From contig CBDBOV010000003.1 of NCBI GenBank assembly GCA_965208575.1, positions 96,001 to 160,000 on the forward strand: DNA of 64,000 nucleotides, read 5' to 3'. A program made the position numbers and the translations under genes. Positions 1,815 through 43,947 of the stretch are shown here, in pieces. Origin of the DNA: Spirochaetia bacterium (lineage in GTDB: Bacteria; Spirochaetota; Spirochaetia; SZUA-6; Bin103). Position 1 is the stretch's first letter. Every line of letters begins with the position of its first letter. The notes under the pieces were generated by a model. The model did not search any database, was not told the DNA's origin, and was given only the letters and a program-made list of their open reading frames with translations.

Positions 1815-2846
1815 ATGGAGTACGCAGACCTCCCGGGCAGGGACGCCCGGGGCAACTGGAAACCGGTAGCGCGCATCGAGTTGCCCGCGTTCCCACGCTG
1901 GCCGTTCCGGCTCGTCCCCTTCCTCCGGTGGCTGTTCGGGTTTCCCGGCTTCTTGTGGCCCTACAAGGCGGTGATCTTCGGCCTGACCGCGGTGACCTGG
2001 TTCTTCCTGACGCCGCCCCTGGAGACGATGGCGACGCTGCGGCCGGACTGGATCGCGCTGATTCTGCTACGGAATGTCGCCCTGATTGCCGTGTGGTACA
2101 GCATCTTTCACGTGCGCCTGCACGTCCAGCGTGCCCAGGGACTGCGCTACAAGTTCAACAACCGTTGGCTCGCGGAGAAGAGCCGGGCCTTCTTCCTCGG
2201 CGGCCAGACGGCCGACAACGTGTTCTACAGCATCGTCAGCGGCGGCGGGATCTGGTCGGCGTACGAGGTGGTCACCCTGTGGGCGTACGCCAACGGCCTG
2301 CTTCCCTTCATGGCGTTCCGTACCAGCCCGGTTGCATTCGTGCTGCTGTTCCTGGCGATCCCGTTCTTCCGCGCCGCCCATTTCTACGTAGTGCACCGGC
2401 TGATGCACTGGAAGCCGTTGTACAAGGCCGCCCACTACGTCCACCACCGCAACGTCAACGTGGGCCCGTGGTCGGGCATCTCGATGCACCCCATCGAGAG
2501 TCTGATCTACTTCAGCTACATGTTCGTGCACCTGATCGTGCCGTCGCATCCGCTGCATGCAATCTTCCACCTGCAGTACGCCGGCCTGACGCCGGCGCTG
2601 GGACACACCGGCTTTTCGAAGGTGGAGCTCGGTCACGAGAAGGCCGCGCTGGCCCACGGCAGCTATTTTCACTACCTGCACCACCGCTACTTCGAGTGCA
2701 ACTACGCGTCCGACGAGGACATGTTCCTGGACAAGCTGTTCGGCAGCATGCACGACGGCACCGCCGAGGCGCACGCCAAGATGCGCGCGCGGGCGCAGAC
2801 GCGCATACGCGCGCGGAAGGCGGCGGCCGAGTCGCCCCTTGGCTGA
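1815..2846 (+). CDS. Sterol desaturase / fatty-acid hydroxylase family membrane protein
   Basis: His boxes HRLMH, HYVHH, HYLHH; several TM segments. Confidence 0.9.
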   Translation: MEYADLPGRDARGNWKPVARIELPAFPRWPFRLVPFLRWLFGFPGFLWPYKAVIFGLTAVTWFFLTPPLETMATLRPDWIALILLRNVALIAVWYSIFHVRLHVQRAQGLRYKFNNRWLAEKSRAFFLGGQTADNVFYSIVSGGGIWSAYEVVTLWAYANGLLPFMAFRTSPVAFVLLFLAIPFFRAAHFYVVHRLMHWKPLYKAAHYVHHRNVNVGPWSGISMHPIESLIYFSYMFVHLIVPSHPLHAIFHLQYAGLTPALGHTGFSKVELGHEKAALAHGSYFHYLHHRYFECNYASDEDMFLDKLFGSMHDGTAEAHAKMRARAQTRIRARKAAAESPLG

Positions 2847-2862
2847 CCGGGCTGACCTGCTG

Positions 2863-3310
2863 AGGAGGCCTTCTCGACGTTCCACAGGTGCGCGGCGGTG
2901 CCGTGGCCACCCCAGTCCTGCTCGGTGAACTCGTAGCCACTGGGGTCGGCTCCACCCCGCCAGCCGCTCCACACCGCCGCGCACGACGAGGTGTACACCA
3001 CCCGCTTCACGCTGCCTGCCTTGCGGCACGACTCCAGCACGCCCCTGGTGCCGTCCATGATGGCGTCGTAGGTGCGTTGCGCGCTGCCTTCTCCGTAGGC
3101 GGCATCGGTGTGCAGGTCGGCGGCGACGTGAAACACGGCCGAGCAGCCGGCACACACCTCGTCGTAGGCGCCGCCGGTGGCCTGCAGCAGGTCGGCCGCG
3201 AAGATCTCGACGCTGCCCGCGCCGAGGTGGTTCATGGCCAGCAGGAAGTCGGTCTTGTCCCGGCGGCTGGCGTCGCGCACGCTGGCGCGTACCGCGTAGC
3301 CCGCCTCGAC
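2863..3310 (-). pseudogene. Internal fragment of the NAD-dependent epimerase gene (copy of ~23907-24353)
   Basis: Near-identical DNA to the intact gene; lacks both ends. Confidence 0.9.
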
Positions 3311-3328
3311 TGCGCCTGCGCACGGCCG

Positions 3329-4417
3329 TCACCCCGACAGGACGCGCCGCACCTCGTCCGCATCCACCGCCAGCGCCGCGGCGATCGCCCCGGCATCCTG
3401 CCCCAGGCCATGCAGGCGCCGAATCGCCTGCGTGAGCAGCAGGCGCCGCTCCTGCTCCGCCTGCTGCCCTGCCCGCTCCGCTCGCTGCGCCCGCTGCCGC
3501 TCCTGCTGCTGCGCCTGCTCCGCTCGCTGCTGCCCCTGTTCCGCTCGCTGCTGCGCCTGCTCCGCTCGCTGCTGCGCCTGTTCCGCTCGCTGCTGCCCCT
3601 GTTCCGCCTGCTCCGCACGACGCTCGTGATGCTCCACCTGCCGCGCCAACAGCATCGAGTCCCGCAGCAGCAGGTCCTCACCCTCCATCGTGCGCCGCAC
3701 CTCTTCTTCCGCCATCGCCTCCCGCAACTGCCGCAGTACGAAGGCGCACTCCACCGGGTACTCCCCTTCCTCGATCGTCAGCACGTGCGCGTCACCCCGA
3801 CCGTTGCCCTTCACCAGGCCCTGGTCGAAGATCGCCAGCAGCCGCTCCAGCTCGTCCCGCCGCCGGCTCGCCAGCCGCGGGATCTGGATGATGTGGCTGC
3901 GGTGATGGATGCCTTCCACCAGCGGATGGCTCGCCGCAAGCTCCCGCCCCGTGCGCCGCTCGGTCACCCGCGGGCACACGTCGATCACCGCCTCGTCCGA
4001 CAGGTCATCCAGGGCGTAGCCCAGGAAGTAGATCGTCACGATCGGCACCGCCTCGGTGCGGCCCGAAGGGTGGGTGAGGATGTTGTCCCCGCTGCCGATC
4101 TGCTGGCCCAGGTAGCGCCGGAAGCGCTCGATTACCGTGGGCGCGTTGGCCTTCTGGATCTCGATCAGCACTTGCCGCTCGGCGCCGGCGGCGGTGCGCA
4201 CGCGGGCTGCGAAGTCCATGCGCAGCAGCGTCAGCGGCAGGCCGTGGACGGAGGCGTCCGGGGTGCGGGGCACGGCGGTCTCCTGTGGGCTGACGGTGAG
4301 CGACTGCACCGCCAGGCCGGTGATCCTGCCGATCAGCAGGCGGGCGACCCGCTGGTCCTGCATCAGGTACTTGAACACCACGTCGTAGATCGGGTTGGCG
4401 ACGTCCACGCTCCGCAT
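3329..4417 (-). CDS. Rpn-like / PD-(D/E)XK nuclease-family protein with coiled-coil QQRAEQ repeats
   Basis: NPIYDVVFKYLM N-terminus, RMDF...LIEIQK catalytic-like motif, 21-bp tandem repeats at ~3490-3615. Confidence 0.7.
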   Translation of the reverse strand: MRSVDVANPIYDVVFKYLMQDQRVARLLIGRITGLAVQSLTVSPQETAVPRTPDASVHGLPLTLLRMDFAARVRTAAGAERQVLIEIQKANAPTVIERFRRYLGQQIGSGDNILTHPSGRTEAVPIVTIYFLGYALDDLSDEAVIDVCPRVTERRTGRELAASHPLVEGIHHRSHIIQIPRLASRRRDELERLLAIFDQGLVKGNGRGDAHVLTIEEGEYPVECAFVLRQLREAMAEEEVRRTMEGEDLLLRDSMLLARQVEHHERRAEQAEQGQQRAEQAQQRAEQAQQRAEQGQQRAEQAQQQERQRAQRAERAGQQAEQERRLLLTQAIRRLHGLGQDAGAIAAALAVDADEVRRVLSG

Positions 4418-4836
4418 TGAACCTGCGCTCCGCGCGGTCAGTCAATCGACTTGCCGGTGTTGCGATTGATCGGTGCGGCGGCGCTGTCGTTCACTGACAG
4501 GCGTGCTCCCTGGTCCATCGCCGGGGGCGGGCGGCGCGGGACGCCGGCACACGAGATGGCGCCGCGGCTGGCGATGATGTATCATGTGAGCCAGCCGTGG
4601 TTGAACGGATATAACGGCGAAGCGGTCTTGGGGAATTGGGAATTAACGAGCTATTTGCCCGCCTATGGATTGACCAGGAGCTGAAGGCAGAAATGGGATG
4701 CGATAGACGCGATGGCGGTTGAACTGGAAGCTCTGGGTTTCATCGTGGACCGTGAAGCTCCAGCCAGCCAGCCGGATCGATCCAACTCCAGGTATCGATC
4801 CTCGTACCCGGTCGAGAGTCGGTTGACCGAGCAAGG

Positions 4837-5019
4837 CTGAATGTTGAGGATCCCGGTCACATTGAATTGGAGCCGAGGTATCACGCCCTCGGCGTGTCGA
4901 GCGGGGGACGCCGACTCCACGTGACGTTTACGCTGCGGGAGCAGGACACGATGATTCGAGTCATATCCGCCCGCGACATGAGTCGCAGGGAGCGTATGCA
5001 CTATGAGCGAGAGACGTAA
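4837..5019 (+). pseudogene. brnT: BrnT-family toxin, 5'-truncated
   Basis: My translation DPGH..EPRYHALGVSSGGRRLHVTFTLREQDTMIRVISARDMSRRER matches the BrnT C-terminal half; N-terminal half replaced by foreign fragments; overlaps the brnA start. Confidence 0.8.
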
Positions 5020-5275
5020 GCCCGTTCCCGACCTCCGGGATGAAGCGGAAGCGCGGGCCTTCTGGGAGCGTCATGACTCCAGCGAGTACGTGGATTGGAA
5101 TGCTGCCGTACGGGCACGCTTCCCGAATCTGAAACCTTTGAACCGGTCGATTTCTCTGAGGTTGCCGCTGGATTTGCTTGAGCGCATCAAGATCGCCGCC
5201 AACAAGCGCGACGTGCCGTATCAATCGCTGATCAAGGTGTGGCTGGCCGAGAAGGTGAGCGCGGCGGAAGAGTAG
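5003..5275 (+). CDS. brnA: BrnA/CopG-family antitoxin
   Basis: EARAFWERHDSSEY...ISLRLP...IKIAANKRDVPYQSLIKVWL. Confidence 0.9.
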   Translation: MSERRKPVPDLRDEAEARAFWERHDSSEYVDWNAAVRARFPNLKPLNRSISLRLPLDLLERIKIAANKRDVPYQSLIKVWLAEKVSAAEE

Positions 5276-5382
5276 CGGCTCACCCACAAGCACGGTATCC
5301 ACACGTTGGTGCGCCGCCGAAGTCAAGCGGCGCCTCTGGCGTGGGCGCCACCGGAGATGGCCGGCTCGACTTGGCCCTCTGA

Positions 5383-5806
5383 TCATCGTGGGTGTACAGC
5401 ATCAACATGTTCGGCGACGCCCTGCGCGACCTGCTCGACCCCCGCCTGCGCGGCAGCATCTGACCGCCGCTGTCGGCGGCGACGTGAACCACCGCCGAGC
5501 AGCCGGCACACACCTCGTCGTGGGCGCCGCCGGTGGCCTGCAGCAGGTCGGCCGCGAAGATCTCGACGCTGCCCGCGCCGAGGTCATTCATGGCCAGCAG
5601 GTACGCGGTCTTGTCCCGGCGGCTTGGCGTCGCGCCCGCTGGCGCGCACCGCGCAGCCCGCCTCGACCAGGTTCTTGACGACGTGCGATCCGATATTGCC
5701 GGAGGCGCCGGTTACGGCGACCGGCCCGTCGGTAGGTCCCGTGACAGGTGGCATGGGTGGATGGTGTGCCTTGGGTGAGCGCCGAAGTCATGCGGCCTCT
5801 CTGGCA
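5383..5806. pseudogene. Chimera: permease C-terminal tail (+) fused to a degenerate epimerase 5' fragment (-)
   Basis: 5383-5470 matches the NMFGDALRDLLDPRLRG tail; 5472-5806 matches ~24160-24492; same junction as at ~30345-30665. Confidence 0.85.
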
Positions 5807-5885
5807 ACAACCCACGAAACCCGCCGGAAACGGCGGAATTCGCATGGCCGGGATCGACGGCAGACCGCTTGCAGGAGCGCACGAC

Positions 5886-8800
5886 GGGCGGCCAACTCCG
5901 CACGCGCCACCGCGTGGAGGCGGCGCTACCGCGACGGCTCAGGCGGCGGAGCTGGTCCGTAACCGTGGCACATGCGGTGGTGCGCCAGGCACGCAAGAGC
6001 CAGGTTCTCCGGCTCCGGGCCGCCCCCCTCGGCAACCGGCAGCAGGTGGTGGATCTGTAGCAGGTGGGAGGAATTGCAGCGGCGACCGGTGAGCGGATCT
6101 CGATAGCGGCAGCGCCCCCCGTCACGCAGCCAGACGTGACGCCGGACCGCCGCCGGAATGGGGCGCCGCCGCGGCGGCCGGCGCGGGCCAGGCGGAGCAT
6201 CGCTGGTGCACCGCGGCGACGCTCCCCCCGGCGTGCCGCCCGCACCACGCGCACACCGCACGCCGCTGTCCAACTGCGGCGCCGCAGCCGTGACCGGGCG
6301 GATCGGCGTGGCATCAGCGCCGTCGCTGGAGCCGTCGCCGGCCAACTGCGGCGCCGCAGCCGTGACCGGGCGGACCGGCATGGCATGAGCGCCGTCGGCG
6401 GGGCGGCCGCTGGCCAACTTCAGCGCCGCAGTCGTGGCCGACCGGATCGGCGTCGCACCAGCGTCGTCGGCGGGGTCGCCGCCGACCAACTTCGGCGCCG
6501 CAGTCGTAGCTCGCCGGATTGGCGTCGCATCAGCGCCCTCGGCGGGGCCGCCGCCGACCAACTTCGGCGCCGCACCAGCGCTGTCGGCGGGGCCGCCGCC
6601 AGCGCTCCGACCCTCCGGCGCCGCAGCAACGGCGGGCGGGGCCGAAGCAGCAGCACCTGCGCGGGCGCCAACTGACGTTGCACCGCCCGCCGGGGCGGCG
6701 GGCGCTACGCCGCGCACCCCGGCAGCGTTGCGGGACGGCGCGGCCCGCGGCTGCTCCCCGCCGGCCGCGGCCGCCGCCACGACCGAGGGTGCGCCGGTCC
6801 GCTCCCGCCGCGACGATGCTGCCGTGCCGCCCGTACGCCCCCGCCTGCCACCGCCGCGGCGCGGGTCGTGCCGCGCCACCGCCTCGCGCACCAGGCGCGC
6901 CACCAGGTCGCCCCACGACATGCGCGGGTCGACGTGCGACCACAGGTCCTTCAGGTGGCGCAGTCCCTGCTCGCACTCCTGGTCGATGCTCACCTTCAAC
7001 GTGTAGCGGTCCGGCGCCACCGCGCGCAGCGTGTCGCGTGGCGGCGCCACCTGCGGCGCGGCACTGGCCAGCAGGCCGGCGACCTGGCGCGTGGTCATGC
7101 CGGCGGCCTGCTCGATCAGCTCGCGCTGGCGCCGCGGGTGCAGCAGCGCTGCGGCCGATACCGGCCCGGCGGACCGCGGCTCCGGGTTGGAACACGGTTC
7201 CGGGTTCCGGTCACCTCGCGACGGCGCCGGTGCGAGCGCAGCGGTGAGCCGCGGCTCCGATGGGGCCACGACCGGCAACGGTACCGGTTCGGCGCAACTC
7301 GCCGGCGTTGGAGGTGGCGCAGCCGGGCCTTGGTCCGAAGCGGCCGCGGCGGCACCGGGAGGGCGCAACGGTGCCGGACAGTGCCCGGCGGCTCCGCTCG
7401 GTTCCCGCCGCGCCGGCAGCGCATCGGCATGCCGGGCGCCGCGGTGCCGCGCAGCCGCGAGGCTCGCCGCCGGCACCACCGGCGTGGCCGCCGCCTCGTT
7501 ACCCGTGAGCCCGGGCCGCGGTACACGCCCCGGCGCCGCAGGCGGTGGCGCGTGCAGCGTGGCGGCCGTCGAAGCCCGTGCAGCGCCCGAGGTGGCCGCA
7601 CTCGAGTCCAATCGGCCCACCGGCTGCGCACCCGCCGCTGCCGGGCGGGCACCGACTGCCGCCGCGTCGTCCGAAGATCGCCTGCAACGGTCGCTCACGG
7701 TATGCCGGTCTTCGCGGTCCCCGGCGGCACGGGACGACTGCGCCCCCAGGCCGTCCGCCGATGGCCTGCAGCGGTCGTTCACGATGTGCCGGTCTTCGCG
7801 GTCCCCGGCGGCACGGGACGACTGCGCCCCCAGGCCGTCCGCCGATGGCCTGCAGCGGTCGTTCACGGTGTGCCGGTCCTCGTGGCTTCCGGCGTCATCG
7901 AGCGACCTCACCTCAAGCTCGTCCGCCGATGGCCCGCAACGGTCGCTCACGGTATGCCGGGCCCCGCGGCCTCCGGCGTCACCGGGCGACCGCGCCTCCT
8001 GGTCGACGGCGGCCACGCCGGGCGGCGCCGATGCCGTCACCGCCGCGGCACCGGCCATCCCCGCTCCCGACGCTTCGGCATCCTGGTCTCCCGCTCCGCT
8101 CGGCACCGCAGGCAGCCCATGCAGATCTTCGCAGCGCTCCTCATCGACGCTCGCGCTCGCTCTCCGGCACTGGCGCTCGGCGGCGCCAAACGCGGTCTCC
8201 AACTGCGCCGCCGACGTCACACTCAACTCGCCGCTGTGCAGCATCGCCCGCACCCAGCCATGCCGCCGGCACAACCTCATGGTCTGAATACGCCGTTGCG
8301 CGGCCGCATCGGTGAACCGCAACTCCCGCACCGCGTAGTCGAACAGGCTCGAGAACCCGCGCCGCAGCGCCAGCCCGCGACGGTCGATCTCGTCGAGATG
8401 GTCCAGGATGTGCACTTCGAGGCCGCGCTGGTTGGCCGCCAGGCGCCTGGTCTGCTCGAGGAGCTGCTGATCACCGAGTGAGCTGAAGGGTCGTCTGGCG
8501 GTCCCGCCGGTCATGTTTGGCATGTCTTAAATATAACACTGGTATGTAGATAGCACTTTCTTACAGGTCCTCGAACCGGTACCGGCAGCGCCCGTCGGGC
8601 GCGAATTGGCGGCTCCAGGGGCACGCGGTCGGCCACTTGACGGTCGCACACCATTGCCGGGCTTCACGGCCCGCCAGCGGCGTTTAGCGGCAGCGCAAAA
8701 GTGCGTCAACCCCTGCGCCCGATTTTCTGCAGTTATTTTGGTGCAGGTCGACAGGAACCCACCCCGCGCCGCAACAGATGGTCCGACCCGCCCGGTACGC

Positions 8801-8980
8801 GGGCCCTCACGACACCGGCGCCCGCGGCAGCCCGCTCGGTCCTCCATCTGCTGCCGACCTGCGCCGGACGCTCGCTCTGCTCAGTTGCCGTACGCGCGTA
8901 TCGTCCTTGCTCCCCGCTGCTGATCGGGGTCAAACTTCGGGAGGCTCTCCGGGCTCTCCCTCGGCTGACGTTCGCTCGGG
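5886..8980 (-). repeat. HNH element copy 1 (gene plus ~450 bp conserved upstream region)
   Basis: Colinear with 30669-33950 over coding and non-coding parts. Confidence 0.85.
5926..8523 (-). CDS. HNH endonuclease with DUF222-like N-terminus and long low-complexity/repeat linker
   Basis: C-terminal VWLRDGGRC...LQIHH...GG...NL...C..HH; N-terminal HLDEIDRR...GFSSLFDY; 84-bp and 72-bp tandem repeats. Confidence 0.85.
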   Translation of the reverse strand: MPNMTGGTARRPFSSLGDQQLLEQTRRLAANQRGLEVHILDHLDEIDRRGLALRRGFSSLFDYAVRELRFTDAAAQRRIQTMRLCRRHGWVRAMLHSGELSVTSAAQLETAFGAAERQCRRASASVDEERCEDLHGLPAVPSGAGDQDAEASGAGMAGAAAVTASAPPGVAAVDQEARSPGDAGGRGARHTVSDRCGPSADELEVRSLDDAGSHEDRHTVNDRCRPSADGLGAQSSRAAGDREDRHIVNDRCRPSADGLGAQSSRAAGDREDRHTVSDRCRRSSDDAAAVGARPAAAGAQPVGRLDSSAATSGAARASTAATLHAPPPAAPGRVPRPGLTGNEAAATPVVPAASLAAARHRGARHADALPARREPSGAAGHCPAPLRPPGAAAAASDQGPAAPPPTPASCAEPVPLPVVAPSEPRLTAALAPAPSRGDRNPEPCSNPEPRSAGPVSAAALLHPRRQRELIEQAAGMTTRQVAGLLASAAPQVAPPRDTLRAVAPDRYTLKVSIDQECEQGLRHLKDLWSHVDPRMSWGDLVARLVREAVARHDPRRGGGRRGRTGGTAASSRRERTGAPSVVAAAAAGGEQPRAAPSRNAAGVRGVAPAAPAGGATSVGARAGAAASAPPAVAAAPEGRSAGGGPADSAGAAPKLVGGGPAEGADATPIRRATTAAPKLVGGDPADDAGATPIRSATTAALKLASGRPADGAHAMPVRPVTAAAPQLAGDGSSDGADATPIRPVTAAAPQLDSGVRCARGAGGTPGGASPRCTSDAPPGPRRPPRRRPIPAAVRRHVWLRDGGRCRYRDPLTGRRCNSSHLLQIHHLLPVAEGGGPEPENLALACLAHHRMCHGYGPAPPPEPSR

Positions 8981-9356: not shown

Positions 9357-9640
9357 GTCATTGACGGAGTTGACGGGTGGCCGCGCGCGTGCAACACTGC
9401 CGATGGCAGGATACGAGCACATGTGCGTAACGGCTAAGGAATCCCTCCAGCGCGGCTGCCGCTTGAAGATCGTGCAACCGGTGCGTTCTACCCCCGTTCT
9501 ACCCCCCCCCAAAAAAAGGTCGACAACACCTAACTCTCCATTCATCCGACAAATAACTAACCGTTCCGGGCAATCGGGCCGCTTTCGCCGCACCTCCGTG
9601 TACGCCCGCCCGGCGCCTTCGCCAGCACTCCGTCAAATAC
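9357..9640 (+). promoter_or_regulatory. Conserved ~280 bp non-coding leader A upstream of SBP cluster 1
   Basis: Colinear with 26120-26400; begins with TTGACG repeats. Confidence 0.6.
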
Positions 9641-9646
9641 CATTCC

Positions 9647-10024
9647 CCGGGCCAATTCGTTCCGTTCGAAGAGTGGCCCGAAGAGGTCAAGAACGTCTTT
9701 AACTACGATCCGGAAGGCGCGGAGGCGCTGCTGGATGAAGCCGGATATCCTCGCGGCTCGGATGACATTCGATTCAAGACCACGTTGAAATGGATAGAAT
9801 CTTTTGATGTAGGCTATGCGGAATTGGCCATTGGATTCTGGCGCGAAATTGGTGTTGACGTACAGCTTGAGCTGATGCCCGGTGCCGAATTCACTCCTGT
9901 CACGGGTGATAGGGATTACGAAATGGTCACCAGCATAACGGCAAACCTCAGCCCGGGATATATCCACTATTCCGACGCGTTCAATTGGAACACAGCCAAC
10001 CGGGCGGCGGTCTTGGGGCGCTAG
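9647..10024 (+). pseudogene. Internal relic of a family-5 ABC substrate-binding protein (cluster 1)
   Basis: FVPFEEWPEEVK...YDPEGAEALLDEAGYPRG...WREIGVDV; no signal peptide or C-terminus. Confidence 0.85.
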
Positions 10025-30402: not shown

Positions 30403-30410
30403 CCGCCGCT

Positions 30411-34226: not shown

Positions 34227-34265
34227 TTGACCCCGAGCAGTCCGTGGCGTACGGTATGACGTACG
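34227..34265 (+). promoter_or_regulatory. yefM-yoeB promoter/operator
   Basis: TTGACC-17bp-TACGGT; CGTACG palindromes at 34248 and 34260, 12 bp apart. Confidence 0.7.
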
Positions 34266-35505: not shown

Positions 35506-35521
35506 TCATGCGGGTTTGGCG

Positions 35522-35989
35522 ATGAGCAACGGCGAGCGCGGCCGCAAACTGCTGGCGGCGTCGTGCGAGCACCTCGCGGAGATGGAGGGCGCGCTGCGCC
35601 GCAGTTCGTGGAACATCGCCGTGCGCCGCGCGCAGGAAGTCGTGGAGCTGGCACTGAAGGCGGTGCTCACCTACCTGTGCATTGACTATCCGAAGGTGCA
35701 CGACGCCGCCGAACTGTTCGTGGCTACGCTTGCCGCCCGGCAGATGCCCCTGAGCGAGGTGGAAGCGGCCGACGTGCACGCCGTCTCCGCGCGATTGGCC
35801 GAGCGGCGCGCGCCGGCGTTCTACTTCGAGTACGACGAAGAGCCGGCCGGCGCTCGCGGGGCGGCGGCCGACGCGCGTCGCGTCCAGCGCCTGTGCGCCC
35901 GCATCGCCGCGGACATCGAACGGGCGGCTGCGGCGCGGCAGGAGCAGGCCGGCGGTGACCGGGAGCCGTCCGCCGGCGCAGCCGATTAA
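35522..35989 (+). CDS. HEPN-domain protein
   Basis: AQEVVELALKAVL...YPKVHD...R.PAFY; follows the MNT gene. Confidence 0.85.
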   Translation: MSNGERGRKLLAASCEHLAEMEGALRRSSWNIAVRRAQEVVELALKAVLTYLCIDYPKVHDAAELFVATLAARQMPLSEVEAADVHAVSARLAERRAPAFYFEYDEEPAGARGAAADARRVQRLCARIAADIERAAAARQEQAGGDREPSAGAAD

Positions 35990-36087
35990 CGCGCCAGGAC
36001 GCGGTCGCGTTCCATGTTGCGCATGCGGCATGACGTGGTCGCCGGGCGGAGCGAAAGACATGCTCGCCGAGAATTTCCTGTTCGGAC

Positions 36088-36730
36088 GGTCCCGACCAGG
36101 TTCCGCCAGTCCTTGACGTCGCCGTGCTCCCTGAGATCAACGTGTGGACCTTCGATTTTCGGGCTGGCACAGGATTTACTTTCAACAACGTCAACCACGC
36201 GCCCTTTGATGACATCCGCGTGCGCCGGGCCATGCAGATGGCGCTGGATCTGGAGACGATCAATGCGACCTTCTTCGGCGGTTTGGGAGATCCGACTCCG
36301 AACGGATTGTATGCCAACTCCAAGGCGGGGGTTGGCACGCCCTTCGACCAGTGGACCGAAGAGATCAAGCCATACTACCGGTATGACCCGGAAGGGGCGA
36401 AGCAACTGTTGGCCGATGCGGGCTATCCCGATGGCTTCAACACCCGTTTGGACTACGACGTGCGCGCCGATACGAGTCGCTCCCCGCCTGTGCCTGTCCG
36501 CGGGCCACCGAGCCATAGAGGGCTACCGCCGACAAGCGTTCCCCGAGTCGGTCGCGCACCCTGGCCAGGTACAGGTCCAGAAGCGGCTCCAGTTCGGGGT
36601 ACCCGTGACCCCGATGCTGCTGGCGGGGAGGCGACACGTTGCGATCAGAATACCACGAACCAGCCGGGGATGGGGATCCGGCGGCGTGGACCGAGATGGC
36701 GCGGCGCGGGCGCGGTAGACCCGAGCGCGC
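36088..36730. pseudogene. Chimera of SBP-3 fragments, MNT 5' fragment and permease-2 tail
   Basis: 36088-36130 is an inverted ~19452-19492; 36132-36477 matches ~19750-20095; 36477-36680 resembles 22914-23118; 36691-36730 resembles 12146-12190. Confidence 0.85.
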
Positions 36731-36777
36731 GTCCGGCATGCTACAGTGGTCGCTGTGGAAGTGGAGCACGGTACCGG

Positions 36778-37287
36778 ATGAGGTTGGACAGCATCGAGCG
36801 TGTCGCGCGTGCGTTGAACGACAACGAGGTCCGCTTCATCGTGGTGGGCGGCTTGGCGGTAGTCGCCCACGGCTACGGGCGCCAGACGCAGGATCTCGAT
36901 CTTGTCATTCAGCTTGAGCCGGGCGCCATACTTCGTGCGTTCGTGGCGCTGGCCGGATTGGGGTACCGGCCCCGCGTTCCGGTCACCGTGGACGCATTCG
37001 CCGACCCCCGGCAGCGCGCGCAACTGATTGAGAACAAAGGCATGATGGTCCTGGGCTTCCACAGCGAACGGCACCGCGAGACGCCGGTCGACGTCTTTGC
37101 CACGGAACCGTTCGACTTCGATGCGGAGCACGCGGCCGCGCTAGTCGAGGAGGTGGCTCCCGGAGTGCCGGTACGGATCGTGCGGCTGGAGACGCTGCTG
37201 CGCCTGAAGCGCGGCGCGGGCAGACCCCAGGATTTGGCCGATATCGCGGAGCTGACTCAGTTTGATCGGGGTGAGGCGCATGGCTGA
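36778..37287 (+). CDS. Nucleotidyltransferase-fold protein (putative TA component)
   Basis: FIVVGGLAVVAHG..R.T.DLDL...LK..AGRPQDLADI. Confidence 0.8.
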   Translation: MRLDSIERVARALNDNEVRFIVVGGLAVVAHGYGRQTQDLDLVIQLEPGAILRAFVALAGLGYRPRVPVTVDAFADPRQRAQLIENKGMMVLGFHSERHRETPVDVFATEPFDFDAEHAAALVEEVAPGVPVRIVRLETLLRLKRGAGRPQDLADIAELTQFDRGEAHG

Positions 37288-37465
37288 CGAGATCGATTGG
37301 CGGGTAGTCACGTTTGCCGGCAACCGACGCAGCCAGCGAGAGGAATTTCGCACGCTCCCGTTGCGCGACAAGCTGGTCGTGATCGAACAGCTCTCGATGG
37401 TTGCCGAGTATTTCCGGGCCCGTCGCCGGGTAACGCGGGTGGCGGACGACACTCAAGATACGTAG
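37280..37465 (+). CDS. Small hypothetical partner protein of 36778
   Basis: Overlapping start; fragments recur at ~9225-9305 and ~34800-34870. Confidence 0.6.
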   Translation: MADEIDWRVVTFAGNRRSQREEFRTLPLRDKLVVIEQLSMVAEYFRARRRVTRVADDTQDT

Positions 37466-37498
37466 TCATAGACCCTGCCGGCGGCGCACGGCGCCACT

Positions 37499-37755
37499 TG
37501 ACCGATTCGATACGGAACGGACTCGAGGCGGCCCTACTGCTCGCCGACGACCGGACCGTTCGCCGCGTGGCTGTCGTCGAAGGCACTCGACCGCTCGGCA
37601 CGCTCGGCGTGTTGCTGCTGGCGTTGCGACGGGGACTGGTCGACCAGGACGAGGTGCGCCGGCTGGTCGACGACCTCGTGCGCTCCCATGGCTTCCGAAT
37701 CGGGGTGGAGCTGTATGCCGCGGTGATTCGCGAAATCGACCGGCCGTAGCTGCAG
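37499..37755 (+). pseudogene. yefM snippet fused to DUF3368 3' half
   Basis: 37499-37528 resembles 34451-34479; 37525-37755 resembles 16386-16618. Confidence 0.8.
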
Positions 37756-38340: not shown

Positions 38341-39369
38341 TCAGGCACCGCCCGAGTTCCCTGCGGCGACGCCGCTCCCTCCGGCCGGCGCCGCGCCCAC
38401 GCGGGCGAGGAAGTCGGCGCCGGTGTCACACTGCACCAGCCAATCGCCGACCTCCGCCAGACGTTCCGTGTCGGTGATGGGCGCCAACAGCTCCGCCAAG
38501 CGTTCGGCGGTGGCCACTCCGAAGCGCGCCGCCGTCATTCGGCACAGCAGCGCTCGTTCGTGCTCAAGCCCCTGCTCGCGTCCCTGCTCAAGGCCTTGCT
38601 CCAGCCCCTGCTCGATGCCTTCCTTCTGCCACTCCTTGGACCATTCGGCCGCTCGTTCCACCAACGTCATACTCACGTCCTCCAACTTCCGTATCGGCGG
38701 CAGCTCCGCCCCGCTCGGCACCAGCCGCTCCACGATCTGCCGCATCCAGTCCGCGAACGCCCGCCGCACCTGCAGGTCCGGCAGCCAAGCCGCCAACTCC
38801 TCCGCCACCCGCGCCACGTCGCTCAGCGAACGGCTCTGCTCCAACCCGACCACCGCGCTCATCCGGTTGCGGCTCGGTAAATCGTCCGCTGCTACACGCC
38901 GCTCGTCAAGTACGAAGTAACGCTGCGCCGGTTGATACGGCGCCAGCAGCGGCCCCACCGGCGCGATCAGCTCCCCCATCTGCAGCGGTGACTGCCATGG
39001 CTCGTCGCCATTGTACAACACCAGCGGCAACACCGCGGGCAGCCGGCCATCGGCGTCAAGCTGCTCGTTGCGCGCCAGCTCCTGGTACAGCAGCCCGGTG
39101 TAGGTGAGTATCCGCAACGCCATCAACGGGTCGTCGGTCGATTGGAACTCCACCAGCAACAGCAGGTACAGCCAGTTGCTGCGCAAGCGCATCCGCCAAA
39201 CGTTGTCGCCGTGGCGTTTGAGCAATTCGTCGCTGATGTACTCGGTCGACAGTTTTCTGAGGGTGGCAAAGTCGACCTCCTCGATCCAGTTGCCTGGGAC
39301 GAAACCGCGCAGGAGATCCTCGATCACGCGCGGGGAGGCGAAGATCCGCTTGTAGTTCTCGTCGTGCAT
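38341..39369 (-). CDS. Rpn-family recombination-promoting nuclease / putative transposase
   Basis: HDENYKRIF, DF.TL, D.VW, LLVEFQS, MALR, PAVLPLVLYNG..PW, EQGL repeats. Confidence 0.9.
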   Translation of the reverse strand: MHDENYKRIFASPRVIEDLLRGFVPGNWIEEVDFATLRKLSTEYISDELLKRHGDNVWRMRLRSNWLYLLLLVEFQSTDDPLMALRILTYTGLLYQELARNEQLDADGRLPAVLPLVLYNGDEPWQSPLQMGELIAPVGPLLAPYQPAQRYFVLDERRVAADDLPSRNRMSAVVGLEQSRSLSDVARVAEELAAWLPDLQVRRAFADWMRQIVERLVPSGAELPPIRKLEDVSMTLVERAAEWSKEWQKEGIEQGLEQGLEQGREQGLEHERALLCRMTAARFGVATAERLAELLAPITDTERLAEVGDWLVQCDTGADFLARVGAAPAGGSGVAAGNSGGA

Positions 39370-39530
39370 CCAGCCCCGAGGATACCCGATCCCGGCGTGG
39401 CGGCCGCCACTATGCGGCTGATGCGCACCACGACGGACAGCGCATGTCGTTCCCTGAAACCGCCTAACTTGTATTTCTCCCCAAACTCGGCCGGTTCGAG
39501 AAAACCTCGGCAATCGGGCCGTTTGCGTCA

Positions 39531-39558
39531 TTGACAGGTGTCGAGCGTGTGCTATAGT
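39531..39558 (+). promoter_or_regulatory. Sigma70-like promoter upstream of cluster 5
   Basis: TTGACA-16bp-TATAGT with extended -10 TG. Confidence 0.65.
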
Positions 39559-39798
39559 GACGGTTTGGGACTCGGATGAGTGCGATATTCGCGTGATCAG
39601 GCAACTTGGCCCTGGCAACCGGCTCACGCCAGTGGCACAGCCGGTGCCCAATTCGATCCGATCGATTGCGATCGATTCGTGCCATTGACATGTTGGCCGT
39701 AGGCATGCGATGGTGCCGATATGGGATTTCGTGCGGAGGCACATGATGCGTAAAAGAAACCTTCCAAGCGCTTGTACGGTTGGCGGTAACGCAAGCAT

Positions 39799-39845
39799 CG
39801 TCCTCTCGTCCTCTCGTCCTCTCGTCCTCTCGTCCTCTCGTCCTC
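39799..39845. repeat. (CGTCCTCT)5 plus a partial unit, simple sequence repeat
   Basis: Read directly from the sequence. Confidence 0.95.
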
Positions 39846-40251
39846 CAGGCGCCGGGCGTAACCTCCAAACTCTCGCACAACCGCACAGACCGTAACACCC
39901 GTCCCCGCCCAGGGGACTCTGTTCGCACCACCCACCGCCGGCGCTGCCGGCCGATCAGCTCCGTTGCTCCCCGACCGCCCGCGTGGCGTCCTGACACCTG
40001 TCCCGATACACGCCCGGCGGTCGGCGTTGGCAAACGTCGAAGGAGGTGCGCCGGGAGGTTTTGACGAATTCCGACCAACAACAGTGCGAAGCGTGCCCGA
40101 ACGGAGCGTTCGGCTCGGCACGCCAGCACCTGCCGCCCTCGCTTTCCGGTTGCCTGCGACTGCGCAGGCATGCCACGGGAGTGGGCGAAGGGCCGGCAGT
40201 GAGACGAGCGCTCCCGGAAACGACTCGCAACGACGAGAGGAGAGTCGACTC

Positions 40252-42042
40252 ATGAGATACGTTCTGTTCAAAAAGTGCCTTGCGGTATTGTCCGTGCTGG
40301 TCCTGCCCGCAACCGGCCTCTGGGCGGCAGCGGCGGAGGAGGCGCCGGCAGCGGGCGCCGACAAGAAGTACGTGACCGACCCCACCACCGGCAAGGTGAT
40401 AGTGGCGCCGCAGTACGGTGGTAGTATCGCTGAAGCCGTGACCCGTGACGAGCCGCACACAGACACCTGGTGGGGGGCAGGGTATGGGAGACATGCGGTG
40501 AACCTCCTTCTGGACAAGATGGGCATAGGGGACTGGGCATTAGACAGGGATATATATGATTTTAAACTGGATTATACTCCTCTATCTGCCGTCAGAGGAC
40601 AGCTTGCCGAGAGCTGGGAGGTTTCCCCGGATGAGCTGACCTATACCTTCCACATTCGCCCGGGCGTTTACTGGCACGACAAGCCGCCGATGAACGGGCG
40701 TGAGCTGGTTGCCGAGGATATCGTGTTCAACTTTCACCGGATGACGGGCACAGGCAGCGGTTTCACCGAGAAGAGCCCGTATGCCTCAAGTGTCGCCAAC
40801 TTGCCGATTGAATCGATAGAGGCGACCGACAAGTATACGGTTGTCTTCAAGCTGGCCAATCTGAACTTCAGCGCTTTTGAGATGATCTACCACGAAAGCC
40901 ATGAGGGCTCCTGGATATATCCGCCAGAGGTAATCAAGCAGTATGGCCACATGCAGGACTGGAAGACGGCGGTCGGCACCGGGCCGTACATGCTGACGGA
41001 CTGGGTGAAGGGCAGCTCTCTGACCTACACCAAGAATCCCAACTACTGGGGCTACGACGAGAAGTTCCCGGAGAACCGCCTACCCTACCTCGACGAGGTC
41101 AAGATGCTCGTAATACCGGAATGGTCCACAAGGTTGACGGCGTTGCGCACGGGCAAGATCGTTCGGCTGTGGAACGTTACCTTAGACCAGGCGCAGGCCA
41201 TCCAGAAGACCAACCCCGAACTCTTATGGACAACCCGTGGACAGTCGCCGTACAACTTCGCCATGGATGTGCGCAAGCCGCCCTTCGACGACATCCGGGT
41301 GCGCCACGCAATGCAGCTGGCGCTGGACCTCGAGACAATCAACAACACCTTTTTTGGGGGGCTGGGCGATACGACACCTATGGGGTTTGCTGGGCCGGCT
41401 ACCATCGGGTTCCACACCCCATTTGAGGAGTGGCCCGAAGATGTCAAGGCAAACTATGAATATGACCCGGAAAGGGCGAAGCAGCTTCTGGCGGAAGCCG
41501 GCTATCCCAATGGCTTCAAGACCAAACTGATGATCGACCCGGCCTACGGAGGGAGTAACCTAGACCATACACAATTAGCTGCCACCTACTGGGCTGACAT
41601 TGGCGTTGATGTCGAGCTTGACCTCGTGGAGGGGGCCGTCTGGGTGGCACGCGTAAACGCCCATTCTTACGAAGGTATGACCCGTGGGTTCAGTGGCATC
41701 AACTACAACCCCCTTGTCATCAGCAGGGTCGCGGCTCATTCTGACTCGATATGGAATGGCTCCGGGGCCCAGGACCCTGTCTATGATGCCATAGTTGAAG
41801 CCGCCGAAAACGTCGGCAGCCGCGAGGAGATGATGGAGCTGGTGAAGAAGGCGGACATGTACTTCATCGAGCAACACTGGAATATATGGGGGAGCCCAAT
41901 ACGGCCAGATTTCACCTTCTGGCAGCCGTGGTTGGTGGGTTACAACGGTGAAATCACCCTGGGAGGCGCAAGGTACAATCTCTACCTCTCCCGAGTCTGG
42001 CTCGACTCAGACCTCAGGGAGGAGATGACCGGGACGAGATAA
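40252..42042 (+). CDS. Family-5 ABC substrate-binding protein (cluster 5)
   Basis: ATG after GGAG; signal peptide; LAESWE, GTGPY, PFDDIRVR. Confidence 0.95.
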   Translation: MRYVLFKKCLAVLSVLVLPATGLWAAAAEEAPAAGADKKYVTDPTTGKVIVAPQYGGSIAEAVTRDEPHTDTWWGAGYGRHAVNLLLDKMGIGDWALDRDIYDFKLDYTPLSAVRGQLAESWEVSPDELTYTFHIRPGVYWHDKPPMNGRELVAEDIVFNFHRMTGTGSGFTEKSPYASSVANLPIESIEATDKYTVVFKLANLNFSAFEMIYHESHEGSWIYPPEVIKQYGHMQDWKTAVGTGPYMLTDWVKGSSLTYTKNPNYWGYDEKFPENRLPYLDEVKMLVIPEWSTRLTALRTGKIVRLWNVTLDQAQAIQKTNPELLWTTRGQSPYNFAMDVRKPPFDDIRVRHAMQLALDLETINNTFFGGLGDTTPMGFAGPATIGFHTPFEEWPEDVKANYEYDPERAKQLLAEAGYPNGFKTKLMIDPAYGGSNLDHTQLAATYWADIGVDVELDLVEGAVWVARVNAHSYEGMTRGFSGINYNPLVISRVAAHSDSIWNGSGAQDPVYDAIVEAAENVGSREEMMELVKKADMYFIEQHWNIWGSPIRPDFTFWQPWLVGYNGEITLGGARYNLYLSRVWLDSDLREEMTGTR

Positions 42043-42119
42043 GCACTTAAGCACTCCAGGTGGTGGGGGGGGCCACCAAGGCCCCCACCTGCCACCCTAC
42101 GCCCGCTGAGGAGGCCGAC

Positions 42120-43076
42120 CTGCGCACTTACATAGTCAGAAGACTGCTACTGCTGATCCCGACCCTCTTCATTGTGGCCAGCATGGTCTTCCTGCTCATG
42201 CGCCTGATTCCCGGTGACATCATCGACACAATGGCCAATGAAATGGGGCCTGAGGCCGGTGGTTCCCTGGACCGTGCGGCCATTGAGCGCCGCCTCGGTC
42301 TGGATGTGCCAATACACGTACAGTATGTTCGTTGGATGGGCCAAATACTTCAGGGAAACCTGGGCACGTCGCTCAGAGGAGACGAGCCTGTTGTCGAGCA
42401 GATACTTCCCCGGCTTCCGGTGACGCTTGAGCTTGGTGTCATGGCAATCGCAATCGGGCTCCTGATAGCCGTTCCAGTCGGCATCTACTCGGCGATTCGC
42501 CAGGATACGGCCGCCGACTACCTGGGGCGCACCGTCGCCATCATCGGCTTGGCAACGCCTAACTTCTGGCTGGGAATTATGGTCATGATATACCCGGCCA
42601 TCTGGTGGGGCTGGTCGCCGCCGATGGAATTGATCACCTTCGCAGACGACCCGCTGGGGAATCTCGGCATGTTCCTCATCCCCAGCCTGATTCTGGGGAC
42701 GGCCGGTGCTGCCAGCACAATGCGCATGACGCGCACCATGGCGTTGGAGGTGCTGCGGCAAGACTATATCAGAACCGCCTGGTCGAAGGGGCTGAGGGAG
42801 CGGGTGGTCGTGATGCGGCATGCCTTGAAGAATGCCCTCATCCCGGTGGTCACCCTCGTCGGCTTTCAGCTCCCCATCCTCATCGGGGGGTCGGTCATCA
42901 TCGAGCAGATCTTTGTCCTGCCCGGTATAGGGCGTCTCCTGGTGGCCGCGCTCAGCCAGCGGGAGTATCACCTGGTCTCTGCCATCAACCTGATGCTGGC
43001 AACTGCCGTGATGGTGATCAATCTCGGCATCGACCTCACCTACGCTTTTCTGGATCCCAGGGTGCGCTATGAGTGA
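42120..43076 (+). CDS. DppB/OppB-type permease (cluster 5), probable CTG start
   Basis: GAGGAGG-5bp-CTG; aligns with paralog starts. Confidence 0.9.
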   Translation: MRTYIVRRLLLLIPTLFIVASMVFLLMRLIPGDIIDTMANEMGPEAGGSLDRAAIERRLGLDVPIHVQYVRWMGQILQGNLGTSLRGDEPVVEQILPRLPVTLELGVMAIAIGLLIAVPVGIYSAIRQDTAADYLGRTVAIIGLATPNFWLGIMVMIYPAIWWGWSPPMELITFADDPLGNLGMFLIPSLILGTAGAASTMRMTRTMALEVLRQDYIRTAWSKGLRERVVVMRHALKNALIPVVTLVGFQLPILIGGSVIIEQIFVLPGIGRLLVAALSQREYHLVSAINLMLATAVMVINLGIDLTYAFLDPRVRYE

Positions 43077-43947
43077 CTTCCTGTCGAGGCTGGTCCGGGA
43101 GAAGCCGCTGGGCGCGTTCGGCGGGATCGTCGTGCTGCTGCTGCTGTTCACCGGTATCTTCGCCGACGTCCTGGCGCCCTTTCCGATGAGTGAGCCCCAC
43201 ATGACGGACCGGCTGACCGGGCCGTCAGGGAAATACCTGCTGGGTACCGATCAACTGGGGCGAGACGTGCTCAGCCGAATCATCTACGGGGCGCGGGTGT
43301 CGCTGGTCGTCGGCCTCGCAGCAACCAGTGTCAACATGGTGGTAGCGCTGCTGATCGGCACGACGACCGGGTTCTTCGGCGGCAAGTTGGATATGGTGGT
43401 GCAGCGGTTCGTCGACGCCTGGATGGCCTTCCCGGGGCTGCTCATTCTCATCACGGTGATGTCGCTGGTCGGCCAGGGTCTGCTGCAGACCATACTGGTG
43501 CTGGGCATTAGCGGCGGCATTGGCGGCTCGCGCATCGCGCGCAGCGCCGTCATCGGCATCAGGGAGAACATGTATCTGCAGGCGGCCGAGGCGTTTGGCG
43601 CGAGCGCGACCAGGACCATCTTCCGCCATGTACTGCCCAACATCATGGCGCCCATGATCATCACCTTCACCGTGACCATTGGCGGCGTCATCATGGCCGA
43701 GGCTTCGCTGAGCTTCCTCGGTTTCGGTCTTCCCCCGGATGTCGCCACCTGGGGTGGCATGCTCAGCAACGACGGGCGCCGGTTCATGGAGTTGGCGCCA
43801 TGGCTGGCCATCTGGCCGGGCCTTGCCCTGACCATCGTGGTGTACAGTCTGAATATGCTCGGCGATGCGCTCAGAGACCTGCTCGACCCCCGGCTGAAGG
43901 GCGGTGCAGGTCGTCTGGGTGCCGACAATCGCGCCAAGTCAGTCTAG
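43069..43947 (+). CDS. DppC/OppC-type permease (cluster 5)
   Basis: LGTDQLGRD; NMLGDALRDLLDPR. Confidence 0.95.
   Translation: MSDFLSRLVREKPLGAFGGIVVLLLLFTGIFADVLAPFPMSEPHMTDRLTGPSGKYLLGTDQLGRDVLSRIIYGARVSLVVGLAATSVNMVVALLIGTTTGFFGGKLDMVVQRFVDAWMAFPGLLILITVMSLVGQGLLQTILVLGISGGIGGSRIARSAVIGIRENMYLQAAEAFGASATRTIFRHVLPNIMAPMIITFTVTIGGVIMAEASLSFLGFGLPPDVATWGGMLSNDGRRFMELAPWLAIWPGLALTIVVYSLNMLGDALRDLLDPRLKGGAGRLGADNRAKSV

Follow-up and report, generated by a model that had tools for sequence, protein, structure and literature searches.

How does a bacterial genome come to hold a row of related importer operons whose spacers are built from pieces of the surrounding genes? This question is raised by a stretch of 64,000 nt from a Spirochaetia bacterium (assembly GCA_965208575.1, contig CBDBOV010000003.1, positions 96,001 to 160,000 of the forward strand), referred to here as the window, which holds six related importer gene sets, decayed to differing degrees and linked by scraps copied from nearby genes. 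Five of these are Opp/Dpp-type cassettes (C1 to C5) with the gene order binding protein (SBP), permB, permC, and the sixth (C0) is nearly erased. A preliminary description of this DNA had proposed that the locus repeatedly amplifies, swaps and collapses its cassettes like an accordion, in analogy to an integron array; swap and collapse are supported by the analysis presented here, the integron-like and amplifying parts are not. The 40-kb stretch is a genuine recombination hotspot in which importer modules have been swapped at their conserved ends, and it is probable, in our judgement, that a stack of paralogous cassettes was remodelled over a long period by two ordinary recombination processes with no dedicated site-specific machinery.

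Copied DNA in the region

Comparison of the window with itself by BLASTN returned 110 non-self high-scoring segment pairs. Forty pairs are separated by more than 1 kb and have an identity of 85% or above, and 39 of them fall inside 2.7–43.9 kb, the remaining one (50236/52208) being located outside; 36 are direct and four inverted, and five of the 40 are not independent, as they pair one 39-bp piece with five units of a single tandem repeat. With genes called on third-position GC and Pfam matches, 12,660 of the 35,544 bases between positions 2797 and 38340 (36%) lie outside intact genes, and of this non-genic DNA 4,970 bases (39%) copy window DNA more than 1 kb away at 85% identity or above, with 58% having some BLASTN match in the window. 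In the control flank at 43948–64000, by comparison, non-genic DNA makes up 2,046 of 20,053 bases (10%), and close copies cover 165 bases of it (8%). This 20-kb right flank and the housekeeping flanks of a related locus, L003, served as the control for mosaicism, and the sole repeat of at least 78% identity confined to the L003 flanks is one 111-bp tandem repeat. Sixteen non-genic stretches of 100 bp or more are still unmatched, mostly within decayed SBP genes.

The patchwork reported earlier between 2.8 and 38 kb is therefore real, and the source genes named for it were all found: the epimerase (three times), MNT, DUF3368 and the permease tail (twice each), SBP, an ATPase, yefM and the tip of the 'desaturase'; HEPN is also a source, with one copy rather than the two originally counted. 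It is likewise correct that the paralogues are divergent and the fragments close copies, the cassettes being 65–76% identical at the DNA level versus 85–100% for the spacer fragments. The GC content of the window is about 67%, that of C1, C4 and C5 being 0.56–0.62 against 0.68 in the flank. A megablast search of 20–44 kb against a plasmid collection, made with a plasmid origin in mind, returned five records in which every match was of 79 bp or less, and such an origin was rejected; neither known RNA families (Rfam) nor tRNA anchors were found in the window.

Exchange at the cassette ends

A genome scan with the epimerase gene of the region as query matched 27 stretches, the window's own genome not being among them, and three related loci were confirmed (L001, L002 and L003), amounting to about 57 kb of compared DNA in stretches of approximately 15–21 kb each. 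L002 (OZ253572.1) carries three cassettes in a locus with a GC content of 0.61, and one of these is the orthologue of C4.

The two are 91.1% identical over 3,910 bp, exactly 26498–30393 in the window, and their flanks are unrelated. In bins of 100 nt the C4 core (about 26750 to 30375) has an identity of 0.87–1.00 to L002 and of 0.41–0.84 to C3 of the window, a relation which is reversed at 26495–26749 (0.60–0.77 to L002, 0.78–0.90 to C3) and at 30376–30440 (0.78 and 0.87, respectively). C4 is thus chimeric, with an L002-like core of low GC between window-type, C3-like ends.

The same pattern can be followed site by site in a quartet made up of window C4, window C3, the L002 orthologue of C4 and a second L002 cassette (B). 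In the leader all 28 informative sites group by genome, none by orthology and none otherwise, whereas in the permB and permC core (n = 137) 110 sites group by orthology, 15 by genome and 12 otherwise (Fisher p 4e-21 for the contrast). The 3' end of permC contains an invariant 38-nt coding motif, and in the permC tail 5' of this block 15 of 16 sites follow orthology and one groups the window sequences, while after it all three sites group the window sequences and none follows orthology (Fisher p 0.004 for the contrast between before and after). Beyond the block C4 equals C3 in 25 of 25 columns, in nine of which a relative differs, and C3, C4 and the orphan tail of C0 share one identical 3' end. 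Since leader and tail sites group by genome or window and core sites by orthology, homologous exchange has taken place in both genomes at the cassette ends, on one side in the leader with the signal-peptide region, on the other within the permC motif. The earlier suggestion that cassettes recombine through shared ends is borne out in this form.

For the genes of C4, synonymous divergence (dS) between the window and L002 is 0.15–0.29, against 0.56 for the epimerase. This difference, the low GC of C1, C4 and C5 and the GC of the L002 locus together suggest, on thin evidence, that some cores arrived by transfer.

The 5' end of a cassette consists of a non-coding leader of about 190 nt and the signal-peptide region. 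The leader includes a core of about 72 nt with two predicted hairpins, found at 18693–18762, 26590–26662 and 40142–40219 in the window and at 17900–17971 and 8254–8325 (both on the minus strand) in L002, and the window copies are placed 13–33 nt 5' of the true SBP start codons. These starts (18775 in C3, 26686 in C4 and 40252 in C5) lie downstream of the starts of the longest open reading frames (ORFs) and were set by close homologues, which are 602 aa long with the same signal peptide at the N-terminus. In an alignment of the five leader cores that was itself fitted to the model, 98.9% of pair cells pair and three of 20 pairs show compensatory changes, and the covariation score of these five sequences was reached by four of 500 shuffles; the copy of C5 scores just 13.9 bits. 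The core, which matched no Rfam family, may be a cis-regulatory leader RNA and is put forward as a candidate.

At the 3' end, the permC-tail similarity seen across all paralogues falls in a coding motif that is conserved where OppC-type permeases end, and true orphan tails are limited to 5379–5470 and 18190–18239, the latter identical to permC4 at 50 of 50 nt. The tail was for this reason rejected as a special recombination site, being special only in that crossovers fall inside it. A further candidate was the 'hairpin' of the preliminary description, which does recur (four copies versus none expected from a pattern count in the window). Its folding is no better than that of shuffled sequence (six folds, z between −1.1 and +1.4); in the intact copy and in L003 alike it is contiguous with the start of the epimerase gene, and its exact pattern is absent from the three related loci. 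It was rejected as a structured or REP-like element, and is best read as the 5' flank of the epimerase gene.

Illegitimate joins, a duplicated segment and two putative nucleases

The junctions between spacer fragments were read by eye from printed three-way alignments (J1 to J7). Microhomology amounts to about 3 nt at J1 (desaturase tip/epimerase fragment), 2–5 nt at J2 (permC4 tail/HEPN C-terminus), no more than 2 nt at J3 (permC tail/epimerase fragment), 3–4 nt at J4, 0–1 nt at J5 and 1 nt at J6, and at J7 an inverted piece (19448–19498) meets a direct piece (19747–20094) of one SBP gene with an imperfect overlap of about 10 nt, which looks like a template switch. The fragment junctions are illegitimate joins, each of them unique, and the idea that spacer fragments share junction sequences is not upheld, most junctions being unique microhomology joins.

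A segment of 3.6 kb occurs in two copies, A (5392–8980) and B (30331–33950), which are 91–95% identical (dS 0.11, dN 0.059, dN/dS about 0.54). Copy A is composed of a permC tail, a 5' fragment of the epimerase gene (5472–5805, minus strand), an ORF of 865 aa with an HNH domain (HNH_A, 5926–8523, minus strand) and 456 bp upstream of it; copy B contains an epimerase fragment (30411–30667, minus strand) and a second such ORF of 927 aa (HNH_B, 30710–33493, minus strand). J3 is identical in both copies and must therefore predate the duplication. The left end of the duplicate lies within the invariant permC motif, and the right end (8980/33950) is a microhomology join of 3–4 nt, not a homology tract.

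The HNH ORFs differ in length because of their tandem repeats, a 72-bp unit present in 4.4 and 7.1 copies and an 84-bp unit in about four. Their GC content is 0.76, the middle of the protein is of low complexity (Ala/Pro/Gly/Arg), and the match to the HNH family PF01844 (E 1.4e-4) is barely above the cut-off, with 22.4 bits versus 21.4. They belong to a large unnamed family with at least 484 matches among 8,000 scored candidates, including three paralogues on a contig of 806,449 bp, two each on contigs of 1,661,305 and 5,280,734 bp and apparently three on the 844,087-bp contig of the window, the two window copies included. These data fit a selfish multicopy element that would have been copied together with its flanks as the 3.6-kb unit. 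A protein search with SBP4 found orthologues at 87–97% identity, but the contigs of the HNH and SBP4 matches have a single length in common (1,661,305 bp), where the SBP match is a 52% paralogue, and the search was rejected as a stand-in for the cassette repertoire of the relatives.

A gene for an Rpn/YhgA-like nuclease with a Transposase_31 domain, of the PD-(D/E)XK type, is located at 38341–39798 on the minus strand (to 39845 with the adjoining repeat), with a clear match to PF04754 (E 3.7e-25, 89 bits versus a cut-off of 21) and a distant one to the NCBIfam model for RpnA (E 1e-10, 41.6 bits versus a curated cut-off of 583). Its ATG is abutted by a perfect octamer repeat, (GAGGACGA)x6, at 39798–39845, whose units resemble Shine-Dalgarno sites and whose tract length could change by slippage. 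According to excerpts of the respective papers, RecA-independent recombination is increased by Rpn proteins, whose cleavage products are able to act as primers for template switching (Kingston et al. 2017, PMC5350276), and these proteins are also described as toxic anti-phage defence proteins (PMC10400941).

State of the cassettes

C1 to C5 share the Pfam content of Opp/Dpp (PepT-type) importers, PF00496 for the SBP (family 5), PF00528 with PF19300 for the OppB-like and PF00528 with PF12911 for the OppC-like permease, and the SBP is complete in C4 and C5 only. C1 (9359–12014, plus strand, GC 0.564) consists of a far-upstream leader part (9359–9642), a remnant of the SBP C-terminal part (9650–10015) and intact permB1 (10134–11096) and permC1 (11112–12014). 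C2 (12111–15375, minus strand, GC 0.705) is inverted and lies tail-to-tail with C1, comprising permC2, permB2 and just the C-terminal half of the SBP (14392–15375). In C3 (18693–22535, plus strand) the leader core is followed by SBP3 (18775–20560), which is broken by one extra T near 19877, and by permB3 and permC3. The chimeric C4 (26130–30402, plus strand) is intact, with a far-upstream leader part (26130–26398, 77.5% identical to that of C1) ahead of the leader core, SBP4 (26686–28494), permB4 and permC4, and so is C5 (40142–43947, plus strand), in which a weak leader-like match precedes SBP5 (40252–42042), permB5 and permC5.

The almost erased C0 (4538–5470, plus strand) was recognised by BLASTN, tblastn and Pfam as a series of pieces: a permC3-like piece (4538–4575), the 3' end of an SBP gene (4576–4696), the start of permB (4697–4760), a piece of an AAA_16 gene (4763–4806), a truncated BrnT (4867–5019) and BrnA (5003–5275), a copy of the epimerase-flank element (5315–5377) and the orphan permC tail (5379–5470). 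The AAA_16 scrap (aligned over 4761–4806) is 97.8% identical to the L003 gene versus 88.6% to the AAA_16 gene of the window itself, so that not every scrap copies a gene now present in the window.

None of the 147 ORFs of at least 130 aa in the region has an ABC_tran domain (Pfam), and there is none beside the three cassettes of L002 either; the ATPase subunits would therefore have to be encoded elsewhere. A sugar-type (SBP_bac_1) ABC operon at 55931–59262 is also without an ATPase gene.

Genes and gene fragments between the cassettes

The gene copied most often in the region, together with its 5' flank, is that of an epimerase of the SDR/3beta-HSD family (23323–24441, minus strand; PF01370, E 1.4e-20), the only intact copy, with the flank element directly upstream (24465–24534, minus strand) and further copies of this element at 15603–15672 and 34178–34233. 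A fragment covering aa 30–180 (2858–3310, minus strand) matches 23907–24354 at 99.3% over 448 bp (tblastn likewise 99.3%). It adjoins the gene called 'desaturase' earlier, an intact FA_hydroxylase (1815–2846, plus strand; PF04116, E 2e-17); the 'desaturase tip' at 23215–23289 (plus strand; 93.4% identical to 2790–2865) derives from its last 57 nt or so together with the next 19 nt. FA_hydroxylase and the epimerase were evidently once convergent neighbours, and their substrate may be a lipid or a sterol-like compound. The epimerase also has weak matches to the HpnA and sterol demethylase SdmB models, far below their cut-offs.

Between FA_hydroxylase and C0 lies an ORF of 362 aa (unk362, 3329–4417) with a strong coding signal (GC3 0.91) and an internal tandem repeat of 21/63 bp; it matches none of the families of Pfam, NCBIfam or PADLOC. 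Left of C3 there are a UPF0175/DUF3368-PIN toxin-antitoxin (TA) pair (15826–16613, plus strand; PADLOC PDC-S70, E 5.7e-28), in which 16384–16619 matches 37520–37755, a partial extra DUF3368 (16724–16837), an AAA_16/AAA_22 ATPase gene recognised by Pfam (16891–18105, minus strand; 86% DNA identity to L003 8540–9817) and the orphan permC4 tail, fused to a copy of the HEPN C-terminus (18216–18506; fusion 18190–18506, plus strand). C3 is followed by a broken MNT gene without a HEPN partner (22553–23074, minus strand), and C4 is preceded by an AAA_14/DUF4143 ATPase gene (24610–25950, plus strand; Pfam, and PADLOC PDC-S01, E 2e-57), after which come pieces of the HNH tandem repeat (25987–26034) and a piece of the same ATPase gene (26043–26090).

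Between HNH_B and the Rpn gene lies a copy of the broken MNT gene which is split into a C-terminal (33949–34177) and an N-terminal piece (36476–36681), both on the minus strand and separated by 2.3 kb. The insert contains the flank element already mentioned, YefM/YoeB (34276–34777), MNT/HEPN (34951–35989) and two pieces of SBP3, inverted (36084–36134) and direct (36130–36476). To the right are a DUF2204-like nucleotidyltransferase ORF and DUF3368_B (36682–37749, plus strand), the C-terminal 75 aa of the latter being 88% identical to DUF3368_A, and a 29-bp piece of yefM (37499–37527). Several long ORFs are fragment chimeras, such as 36124–37287, which reads through fragments, and this is of concern for annotation.

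TA modules (type II/VII) do stand between the cassettes, as had been described: YefM/YoeB, MNT/HEPN and UPF0175/DUF3368-PIN are intact pairs, and the truncated BrnT beside an intact BrnA and the partnerless MNT at 22553–23074 are incomplete. HNH, Rpn, unk362 and AAA_16 had no PADLOC match, and their assignment to defence systems was rejected. The order permC, (MNT), (desaturase tip), epimerase and flank element, said to recur with the cassettes, is found after three of them (C0, C3 and C4) and not after all.

In the flanks (1–300, 48479–49984, 59305–60855 and 60955–64000) sulfatases and Calx-beta/leishmanolysin-like secreted proteins are frequent, and two perfect palindromes in intergenic DNA on the right (44131–44154, 24 nt, and 46735–46762, 28 nt) are probably terminators. 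An IS-like unit (50236–53606) consists of a Transposase_29 ORF (50516–52189) between 83-bp direct repeats (50236–50317 and 52208–52290, 88% identical), followed by an rve-domain ORF on the minus strand (52332–53606).

Related loci

The pieces recur, differently ordered, in three related genomes, and in one of these a cassette has collapsed. This is L003 (OZ242313.1), the closest relative, with an epimerase 94% identical at the protein level and a dS to the window of 0.13–0.33, in which the pieces are packed within about 6.7 kb between genes for an ABC-2 transporter and TypA: AAA16, the epimerase, YoeB/YefM, an 80-bp MNT relic, PIN/FitA, an orphan permC3, a truncated DUF3368 and a frameshifted UPF0175. 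The orphan permC3 is 93% identical (DNA) to that of the window, and SBP and permB are missing except for an inverted 61-bp relic of SBP3. L003 thus documents both the collapse of a cassette, as had been postulated, and rearrangement. The MNT relic is 95% identical to window 36499–36578 and, being common to both, shows that at least one relic predates their split.

In L002 the C4 orthologue is followed by an AAA-ATPase_like/PDDEXK_9 gene, a TauD-family gene and two epimerases, an intact epimerase lying 3 kb away. L001 has the epimerase amid housekeeping genes and no cassettes; the gene there (3875–4990, 86% identical to that of the window) is found among GMP synthase, LpxC, CTP synthase and ClpB on a contig with only 58% GC, a high identity for so different a GC content. 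No relics of genes peculiar to the relatives' loci (PIN/FitA, TauD, AAA-ATPase_like, SocA, luciferase-like) were found in the window. Comparison across relatives, recommended earlier, did reveal differences in order and content as well as a collapse, in loci none of which has been shown to be the positional orthologue of the region.

Age of the patchwork

Most fragment copies are 90–95% identical (dS about 0.1), which makes them about as old as the split between the window and L003, and the cassette paralogues differ by a dS of 0.68–1.03. As most copies are of the age of the nearest-relative split, the patchwork is more a fossil record than a fast accordion. Tandem near-identical cassettes and repeated junctions, which recent amplification would be expected to leave, are both absent from the region, and this part of the original proposal is not supported. 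There is also a younger component, since the epimerase fragment at 2863–3310 has three mismatches in 448 positions versus five in 76 in the adjoining desaturase tip (Fisher p 0.002); it is a recent copy and fits gene conversion of an older relic. The larger direct repeats hold perfect tracts of 50–174 bp, which are long enough in principle for homologous recombination.

Mechanism and alternative explanations

What the sequences show directly is the repeats, the anatomy of the junctions, the chimeric build of C4, the opposed groupings of leader and core, and the altered arrangements and the collapsed cassette in the relatives. The remodelling that we favour would have involved two processes. 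In one, homologous recombination or gene conversion in the 5' leader and signal-peptide region and in the C-terminal motif of permC would shift the cores of cassettes, and the segments downstream, from slot to slot and probably also from one genome to another. In the other, microhomology-mediated or template-switch events would delete, partly duplicate and insert segments, so that eroded cassettes persist as collinear relics, and the genes formerly situated after each cassette (MNT, desaturase, epimerase) as scattered partial copies. TA genes, defence-type genes and the multicopy HNH element would settle in the gaps, HNH being co-copied with its flanks. Beyond this we infer the direction of transfer, that breaks made by HNH or Rpn may have started the events, and that the direct repeats may mediate deletion or duplication to this day.

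Several points weigh against this account. The data fit an import of cores into resident ends and a homogenisation of the ends by gene conversion equally well; the contrast between leader and core comes from four cassettes in two genomes, and the inference of C4 transfer has a single comparator gene, the epimerase, which itself has paralogues. The relics of C0 are not fully collinear, the permC3-like piece preceding the SBP-end relic, and being of mixed affinity as well they do not permit an event-by-event history to be reconstructed. None of the three related loci is established as a positional counterpart, the flanks of L003 (ABC-2 transporter, TypA) differing from those of the window, only 20 kb of the same genome served as control for genome-wide mosaicism, and the junctions are those of assembled sequence.

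An alternative, to which we give a small but real chance, is that the region is a passive graveyard in which an old duplicated unit of cassette, MNT, desaturase and epimerase has decayed by random deletions, the cassette ends playing no special part. It would account for relics that are largely collinear with the order of this unit, for the reciprocal decay by which an intact desaturase stands beside an epimerase fragment at 1.8–3.3 kb while at 23.2–24.4 kb the epimerase is intact and a desaturase tip adjoins it, for the age of the N-terminal MNT relic held in common with L003 at 95%, and for fragment junctions that show microhomology only. However, one round of whole-unit duplication does not explain both fragments at 85–100% and cassette bodies at 65–76%, nor do random deletions explain why the leader follows genome at 28 of 28 sites and the core orthology at 110 of 137, with a crossover inside the invariant tail block. 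The 99.3% epimerase fragment next to a 93.4% tip points moreover to continuing conversion.

It is also conceivable, though doubtful, that selfish nucleases (HNH or Rpn/YhgA) drive the scrambling through double-strand breaks whose repair co-converts flanks or switches template, which would be compatible with the favoured remodelling as its trigger. The 3.6-kb duplicate carries an HNH ORF and has its left end within the permC block that is invariant, HNH paralogues occur several to a contig, the region itself includes an Rpn gene, J7 resembles a template switch, and both stimulation of RecA-independent recombination and priming of template switching are ascribed to Rpn proteins in excerpts of PMC5350276. 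Against this, the target site and the element ends cannot be defined, as both HNH copies share flanks, the right end of the duplicate is a microhomology join of 3–4 nt, the HNH ORFs have a dN/dS of about 0.54 and a Pfam score barely above the cut-off, and Rpn is described as a toxic anti-phage defence as well (excerpts of PMC10400941). A more elaborate version, which we regard as rather improbable, is an integrase-free exchange platform, in which a structured leader RNA and the permC tail would serve as portable homology arms, breaks by selfish HNH and Rpn would act as the trigger and TA modules would hold the array; if true, it would swap importer cores, and hence substrate specificity, between slots and genomes.

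Mis-assembly of a mixed population into a chimeric patchwork is very unlikely. The related records are labelled as metagenome-assembled genomes and the window may be one too, but the copies are diverged (85–95%) and microhomology-joined, not identical collapsed repeats, the reading stays unbroken in the 36-kb fragment copy at the point of the extra T in SBP3, and independent assemblies, two of them chromosome-sized, show a similar patchwork with the same pieces reordered. Least credible of all is an integron-like system with a conserved site and a recombinase that is of a new type or encoded outside the window: same-family cassettes with TA modules between them, as reported in excerpts for chromosomal integrons, and orphan tails at boundaries might suggest it, but a tyrosine or serine recombinase domain is found in none of the 147 stop-to-stop ORFs of at least 130 aa at 2.5–44.5 kb and in none of a set of 68 ORFs scanned in the whole window (about 54 of them within 2.5–44.5 kb), the 25 longest of 69 inverted repeats include none at a cassette 3' end, Rfam gave no matches, the fragment junctions differ from one another, each cassette is an operon of three genes with a leader of its own, C2 being inverted, and the shared tail is a conserved coding motif.

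Relation to known systems

In toxin loci of the Rhs/CDI type, with their orphan or displaced modules, retained pieces of a gene end provide the homology through which the main gene can recombine. The likeness to the region, as far as excerpts of the description of these loci go (PMC3967940), lies in short retained gene ends in front of displaced downstream DNA, here the orphan permC tails at 5379–5470 and 18190–18239, and in the crossover inside the invariant 38-nt permC motif. In contrast to these loci, the genes concerned here are permeases and not polymorphic toxins with immunity genes, the downstream DNA consists of epimerase, HNH or HEPN fragments, and the exchanged unit is a whole three-gene core with an additional 5' homology arm in the leader.

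A variable core is replaced through conserved flanks in capsule and O-antigen loci, and paralogues may evolve in concert through gene conversion. The region resembles such replacement, and concerted evolution, in that the ends group by genome and the cores by orthology, with a variable core between conserved arms; it differs in that the arms are a non-coding leader and the last permease codons, in a multi-slot array on one chromosome.

Integron and superintegron arrays, by the IntegronFinder definition as excerpted (PMC4889954), likewise have modules of the same type, interspersed TA genes and a content that varies between relatives. Here, however, IntI, attC sites and promoterless single-ORF cassettes are all absent, and the joins are homologous and illegitimate; with regard to attC, for which an inverted-repeat search was made and no covariance model run, the sequences downstream of the five permC genes also differ. 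Given that no recombinase domain or attC-like repeat was found and that the cassettes are multi-gene operons, one of them inverted, the integron analogy does not hold. The rve-type and Transposase_29 ORFs sit 6–9 kb outside the array.

Segmental duplication with reciprocal degeneration (excerpts of PMC3164680) also leaves spacers that are largely decaying gene pieces with complementary losses, but in the region the similarity of the relics to their sources far exceeds that among the surrounding paralogues, and the relics include several that are non-collinear. With the Rpn/YhgA system (Kingston et al. 2017, PMC5350276, in excerpt) the region has in common a PF04754 protein and joins of microhomology and template-switch appearance that match the proposed action, although the putative nuclease here matches the RpnA model only distantly. 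A genomic accordion would have in common the many direct repeats with perfect tracts, which could in principle mediate unequal crossing-over, but head-to-tail near-identical copies are absent and the dS between cassettes is 0.68–1.03. No description of such an importer array was found in a full-text search of the literature, as judged from the search listings.

Implications

For annotation, a working binding protein is absent from three of the five cassettes, and regions of this kind need read-level checking in assemblies. The HNH element would be a multicopy element that drags host DNA along, and the candidate leader RNA, previously unrecognised, precedes importers of the peptide or nickel type. 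With respect to the diversification of transporter repertoires, the region would provide a base-level example of the exchange of a whole SBP-permease core in which the regulation (leader and signal peptide) and the downstream context stay resident.

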